Below, piece after piece: positions 33,135 to 33,196 of a stretch of 64,000 nt of DNA (within the stretch, counting starts at the first letter, position 1; every line of letters starts with the position of its first letter). Location: NCBI RefSeq assembly GCF_006345805.1, contig NC_043005.1, forward strand, positions 24,242,001 through 24,306,000, read 5' to 3'. This DNA is from Octopus sinensis. Its lineage: Eukaryota. The position numbers and the translations under genes were made by a program. The notes beneath the pieces are model-generated. The model was not told the origin of the DNA. It saw only the letters and a program-made list of their open reading frames with translations, and searched no databases.

Positions 33135-33196
33135 CGTGTTCTGCCCTTACCTTCAAAACACGCATTGAATCGAACCAGGGGCAGCTGATGAAGGGG
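33135..33196 (+). ncRNA. Candidate non-circularly permuted hammerhead ribozyme (second copy)
   Basis: CGUGU-U-CUGCCCUU / CUUC-(G>A)AAA-CACG / AGGGGCAG-CUGAUGA-A-GGGG. Confidence 0.55.

Follow-up and report, generated by a model that had tools for sequence, protein, structure and literature searches.

Non-circularly permuted hammerhead motifs on Penelope-type repeats of Octopus sinensis and at the 3' ends of Naiad retrotransposons

The stretch analyzed here, called the window, comprises 64,000 nucleotides of Octopus sinensis chromosomal DNA (assembly GCF_006345805.1, contig NC_043005.1, positions 24,242,001 to 24,306,000), and inspection of its sequence showed hammerhead ribozyme blocks at window positions 33135 to 33196 in the order cut site, GAAA, CUGAnGA (S-G-C). 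Judged by sequence, this copy belongs to a superfamily of Penelope-type repeats that are non-coding, 0.8 to 0.9 kb long and present in several thousand copies bearing the S-G-C hammerhead motif. We propose, with a probability of about 0.68, that the ribozymes missing from much of the Naiad clade of retrotransposons are hammerheads in non-circularly permuted order (S-G-C in cephalopods, corals, an acanthocephalan and a clam shrimp; C-S-G in nematodes), that these have also spread into thousands of non-coding parasites, and that cutting by them determines the 5' end of new insertions there in vivo. Statements on published work refer to the available parts of the papers and supplements cited.

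Results

All parts of the motif lie on the forward strand. Block S (33135 to 33140) consists of the 5' strand of stem III, CGUGU at 33135 to 33139 with U16.1 at 33139, followed by H17 = U at 33140, and the predicted cut falls between 33140 and 33141, beside a stem III that covaries among families. The stem I strand 3' of the cut (33141 to 33148) forms 8 bp with 33177 to 33184, a helix also seen in nested folds of intact copies. Block G (33151 to 33162) holds a stem II strand (CUUC, 33151 to 33154), AAAA (33155 to 33158) and the 3' strand of stem III (CACG, 33159 to 33162). After a G-to-C linker of 14 nt (33163 to 33176; 8 to 17 nt across the 12 families defined below) comes block C (33177 to 33196), made up of the second stem I strand, CUGAUGA (33185 to 33191), an extra A (33192) and the stem II strand GGGG (33193 to 33196), which pairs with CUUC in 4 bp, two of them G.U. 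The linker from stem I to stem II is 2 nt. A viroid hammerhead with an additional base following A9 is known. The original prediction, made from the letters alone, had named the order of these blocks A-C-B, and their places, their order and the lengths of stems I and II were all confirmed.

The core of the window copy reads AAAA for GAAA (G12A at 33155), so that not all of its core bases are intact. A 28-nt tail motif of its family, F2, had 837 exact matches (control, 0), and the first 70 of these by position formed the tail-anchored sample. We call the window copy decayed because position 33155 is G in 47 of the 50 tail-anchored copies covering the block, as had been expected, and because 28 of the 34 full-span copies keep all core bases. 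The suggested cause, CpG decay, also stood up: 44 of the 50 relatives read CGAAA and one reads CAAAA like the window, counts that are consistent with a G>A change in a decayed member of the family.

For F2 relatives in the genome, 44 matches were listed and there were 3,341 candidates. Two tight exact patterns matched 3,369 and 3,817 times (controls, 0 and 7), and these lower bounds correspond to at least 7,186 copies. A looser pattern with 11,964 matches (control, 44) was dropped from the count because in its commonest class a canonical type I hammerhead lay downstream of an unrelated GAAA. On the window itself, an S-G-C descriptor returned two sites, 33135 to 33196 (score, 15.5) and the copy described below as copy 1 (score, 12.0), while 150 block-wise Markov shuffles of the window gave no match at a score of 12 or higher.

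We clustered 189 cores and compared the 12 clusters with at least three members as families. In the majority sequence of each of the 12 families, the catalytic bases and the UH triplet were intact, with variation at N7 and in the stems. Cognate strands of stem I formed 5.58 of 6 Watson-Crick pairs, compared with 3.35 for noncognate strands, and those of stem III formed 3.83 of 4, compared with 2.00; in both cases, none of 20,000 permutations reached the observed value. A MAFFT alignment was made from 20 natural copies, hand-picked from the 189 cores as well preserved, and 94% of its 300 cells paired, compared with 38 to 49% in slid controls. Ten of the 15 pairs changed on both sides (stem I, 5 of 6; stem III, 4 of 5; stem II, 1 of 4), and 55 cells showed such changes, compared with 18.6 after shuffling (0 of 500); stem II was 94% paired but rich in G.U. 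These covariation figures are not probabilities, because they come from related families, from which the structure itself had been derived. Together, the pattern counts, the stem covariation and the empty shuffles bore out the earlier view that chance was unlikely and that a permuted topology is conserved in a family of short elements.

Copy 1 (4273 to 4343, reverse strand) is an S-G-C hammerhead of a related family, F1, with an intact GAAA, a damaged stem I and an 8-nt linker duplication. The similar tail that had been noticed behind both copies was recovered, and upstream sequence was found to be common to both as well. Because of this common tail and upstream sequence, copy 1 and the window copy are, on sequence grounds, diverged relatives in one superfamily and not independent inventions. 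The helices of the two copies had been described as entirely different, which went too far: the G-C and G.U pairs of stem II and one G-C pair of stem I are nearly invariant. Beside copy 1, positions 4402 to 4705 hold an inverted F1 upstream region that ends 2 nt beyond the predicted cut site and adjoins a fragment resembling the reverse transcriptase (RT) of long interspersed nuclear elements (LINEs). The RT-like piece at 4706 to 4910 was considered as a linked open reading frame (ORF) and rejected; it is of LINE type by eye and absent from relatives.

The 5' ends of copies were mapped against natural reference copies, with junctions uncertain by a few bases in TA runs. In F2, 24 of 70 ends fell 0 to 19 nt past the predicted bond, compared with one at -20 to -1 and one at +20 to +39 (p = 8e-7), and only two fell at the 3' foot of the motif (+40 to +59). 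The corresponding counts (0 to +19, upstream 20 and next 20) were 4, 0 and 1 of 30 for family F10, 9, 4 and 1 of 30 for F1, and 2, 1 and 1 of 30 for the Naiad motif, with a pooled result of 39, 6 and 4 of 160 for the four families. The F2 pile-up is likely a footprint of cutting in vivo.

Craig et al. (2021, PMC8557442) report that canonical hammerheads are lacking in Naiads and give 10 "HHR_core" and 8 "half_core" flags; a permuted order would directly explain why hammerhead descriptors, which look for nested orders only, failed on Naiads. In the supplement of that paper, the octopus Naiad 3' ends read S-G-C like the motif at 33135 to 33196, and their 6-bp stem I has the same sequence as the first 6 bp of stem I there. 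Naiads and the window superfamily are also alike in their (TA)n targets (PMC8557442). From these sequences, the motif of the window family is likely homologous to the SGC motif at the Naiad 3' end. In this genome, the octopus Naiad SGC motif had 392 exact matches (control, 0) and lay 1.1 to 1.75 kb downstream of a same-strand Penelope-like element (PLE) RT core in 7 of the 25 top RT loci (L176, L177, L181, L183, L185, L191 and L197). Another locus of the same RT family, L198, carries a GIY-YIG domain 2.1 kb upstream of the RT, together with CxC and DKA motifs, and has lost its 3' end. GIY-YIG, RT and SGC motif occurred together in no single copy.

The 54 published Naiad consensus sequences were judged by eye from core matches and the last ~300 nt, and at least 15 of them had SGC or CSG layouts, a lower bound and not a computed count. 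S-G-C with clear stems I and III was seen in eight (Amil, Aacu, Anas, Plae, EuTe, Obim, Ovul and Esco) and was probable in Bfor, and C-S-G with three clean stems was seen in seven nematode entries (one Pristionchus entry, Nbra-1, -2 and -3, Hcon, Hpol and Asuum). The other entries had no SGC or CSG motif by eye in the same parts. Bivalve and hemichordate Naiad 3' ends have two other conserved motifs at the hammerhead position (PMC8557442, supplement). One occurs in mussels and clams, and the other is common to oysters and acorn worms. The mussel and clam motif may be twister-like.

The repeat units are non-coding and pyrimidine-rich, with a length of 789 to 921 nt in six tandems. Their copies form partial tandems, inverted 5' copies and insertions with variable 5' ends at (TA)n, as expected of non-autonomous Penelope-like elements; partial tandems, inverted 5' copies and variable 5' ends at (TA)n have been reported for PLEs (PMC8557442). 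The original prediction had suggested looking for copies attached to PLE RT/GIY-YIG ORFs, and this was borne out only in the related Naiad family with its RT-linked motif. Among 207 copies of the window family with at least 600 nt upstream, none had a same-strand PLE ORF upstream, and no ORF link was found for F1, F2 or F10. Unlike a Naiad, the window family thus has no linked ORF with N-terminal GIY-YIG and C-terminal RT. In the GIY-YIG locus set, an SGC element stood directly behind a Neptune-type 3' end in 2 of 30 loci (L229 and L239; G000:C5 and C18), once without a TA spacer; this placement could reflect template jumping and point to the mobilizing enzyme. That set had three matches in 98 kb, compared with 0.26 expected, and we treat the adjacency as a lead only because three other sets of PLE loci with C-terminal GIY-YIG had none. 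Units L021, L093 and L278 carry a splice-donor-like AAG/GUAAG about 350 to 400 nt after the motif, at which several copies end and which resembles the pseudo-long terminal repeat (pseudo-LTR) intron donor of PLEs. The conserved G-to-C linker of L002, L037, L069 and L336 is able to base-pair to the stem II strand and so lengthen stem I into a plain hairpin, a possible off state.

The window insertion is a 5'-truncated copy of F2 on the forward strand (33049 to 33405, aligned over this whole length to the natural copy L021), with its 5' end about 90 nt upstream of the predicted cut. Its 5' junction is a (TA)35 microsatellite (32982 to 33050), and its pyrimidine-rich conserved tail (33197 to 33405, forward strand) ends in GTCCTGTAC-(TA)n and continues into more conserved AT-rich sequence. 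A common repeat resembling short interspersed nuclear elements is inserted into this tail at 33406 to 33813, and AT-rich tail-like sequence resumes at about 33814.

Other hammerhead-like sequences were seen in the genome. A canonical-order type I hammerhead sits on an abundant short repeat (L062, 3957 to 4059, reverse strand; window, 5668 to 5750, forward strand) with 3,653 exact tail matches. Immediately upstream stand a hairpin and then GAAA, an arrangement reminiscent of a further, degenerate half-hammerhead. A fragment of this repeat is inserted in a decayed PLE of the window (5100 to 6800, forward strand), which has a C-terminal GIY-YIG and belongs to a family with at least 150 matches. 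In that family, CUGAUGA is retained about 480 nt downstream of the point where the GIY-YIG match begins, without a nearby standard stem II, and, judging from this, the family possibly carries another atypical hammerhead. An intact Neptune-type PLE ORF of 784 amino acids with RVT_1 and C-terminal GIY-YIG (L156, 340 to 2691; L164) occurs in many near-identical copies, and the 3' end of this family has a canonical-order hammerhead with a variant core.

Discussion

We consider it quite probable that intact units adopt a double pseudoknot in cis, with one cut per unit, and that a PLE enzyme acting in trans uses the RNA as template as far as the cut end. Intact copies would cut themselves just 5' of stem I, and read-through transcripts of tandem units would receive one cut in each unit. 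A Penelope-type RT/endonuclease would copy from the tail to the cut end, and the resulting new copies would start 0 to 19 nt past the cut. This cutting is probably incomplete, given the competing hairpins and the read-through in about half of the copies.

Several observations weigh against permuted hammerheads that cut in vivo. Stem II is weak, since across the 12 families it consists of G-C, G.U and then variable positions with 1.83 of 4 Watson-Crick pairs (p = 0.005), and a register offset by 2 nt fits some families too; it is also weak, offset or absent in several of the published S-G-C Naiad consensus sequences. A fourth helix on the outer sides of stems I and II gave -3.9 kcal/mol for cognate and -3.3 kcal/mol for noncognate combinations (p = 0.11). 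Nested folds were mostly unremarkable, with z between -1.2 and +0.9 for six of seven motifs, and contained hairpins that compete with stems II and III. The permutation p-values overstate independence, given the relatedness of the families, and well-preserved copies were chosen for the 20 aligned rows. Among the pile-ups, those of F10 (4/0), F1 (9/4) and the Naiad motif (2/1) are not individually significant against the upstream bin, and only 1 of the 24 clustered F2 ends coincides with the cut itself. No pile-up was seen in a canonical type I family (2 of 29 starts between cut and anchor), a weak control with 17 nt available. For a Poseidon element, RNA sequencing reads ending at the hammerhead cut were not found (Frangieh et al. 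2024, PMC11167929).

The same blocks could also work as a swapped pair, in which S and C of one unit close a stem I hairpin and G comes from a neighboring tandem unit or another molecule, giving a nested junction as in dimeric Penelope hammerheads. The tandem arrangement of the units would suit this, stem I is the sole helix regularly recovered by nested folding, and minimal PLE hammerheads have been proposed to act as dimers (Cervera and de la Pena 2014, PMC4209133). However, the G-to-C linker is held at 8 to 17 nt, a length that by estimated geometry is plausibly sufficient for a cis bridge between stems III and I, cis cleavage is known for single SGC RNAs (Eckert, Friedrich, Weinberg and Weinberg 2023, PMC10085705), and nematode Naiads have the sister order C-S-G with three perfect stems, so that we regard swapping as unlikely.

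We give even less credit to a hammerhead-derived signal that does not cut but serves RT binding or as a promoter, with the pile-up marking a transcription start or an RT stop. The weak stem II, the unsupported fourth helix and the competing hairpins would be explained, PLE promoters lie in the pseudo-LTR (PMC8557442), and hammerhead cutting is described in the cited literature as dispensable for PAc insertion in vitro. On the other hand, all catalytic bases and a UH triplet persist in every family majority while N7 and stems vary, the edge of the pile-up is sharp at the predicted bond, and an RT stop should lie at the motif's 3' foot, a place at which no more than 2 of 70 copies end. Chance complementarity in an AT-rich repeat is already refuted by the shuffles and the covarying stems. 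In its favor, Rfam gave no hammerhead match for an intact copy, a null that is uninformative because Rfam also missed a canonical type I motif of the same genome; on the whole window, the best 150 of 425 Rfam rows were nearly all microsatellite-driven microRNA models.

Cutting by permuted hammerheads in cis is hence the reading we prefer. It places a ribozyme topology of environmental RNA in animal chromosomes, at high copy number and with natural covariation across a dozen families. The genomic footprint suggests in vivo cutting by a Penelope-type hammerhead, a ribozyme with a role described as an open question in PMC8557442 and PMC11167929. The window copy represents a natural catalytic mutant, and intact natural copies exist alongside it, at L002 (1573 to 1662), L069 (3952 to 4041), L336 (2902 to 2990, reverse strand) and, for Naiad, L125 (4789 to 4875). 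If the proposal is true, a permuted ribozyme accompanies permuted protein domains in the same elements, and SGC and CSG topologies are a common feature of animal DNA and no mere rarity of environmental RNA.

Comparison with known hammerheads

Type SGC is a named non-circular permutation with three crossing stems, represented by HRIMA-1 and variants (PMC10085705). Its RNAs come from metatranscriptomes, with none, as that paper states, in genomes of known organisms; cleavage was validated for five of them, those with a short linker between stems I and II cleave in vitro, and a fourth helix is necessary in SGC-3. The octopus motif is like type SGC in its S-G-C order, its core (CUGAnGA, GAAA and UH), its three mutually crossing stems and its short stem I-II linker, and it differs in its location in animal chromosomal DNA, in thousands of copies on retroelements, in the extra base after A9, in a G.U-rich stem II and in the unsupported fourth helix. 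Models of permuted topologies were applied to viral sequences in a 2026 paper. We found no paper that reports SGC or CSG hammerheads in retrotransposons or animal genomes, although subscription papers and the Eckert and bioRxiv supplements, which lay outside the search, could hold cases.

The type I hammerheads of PLE pseudo-LTRs resemble the octopus motif in their position near the 3' end or in the pseudo-LTR, their tandem and inverted insertions and their AT-rich targets (PMC4209133 and PMC11167929). In contrast, the order here is S-G-C and not C-G-S, stem III has 4 to 8 bp and is not minimal, and the predicted cut is on the motif's 5' side. Non-LTR retrozymes are likewise non-coding, hammerhead-bearing tandem units thought to derive from PLEs (Cervera and de la Pena 2020, PMC7229834; Li, Clavereau and Pollet 2026, 10.64898/2026.07.22.740005), but theirs is a type I motif on units of 170 to 400 nt, whereas the octopus repeats carry SGC on units of 0.8 to 0.9 kb and so fall outside that class by both type and size. 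Overall, the topology itself was already known as type SGC, and no earlier account of it in animal DNA, on retroelements or as the probable ribozyme of Naiads turned up in the literature searched.
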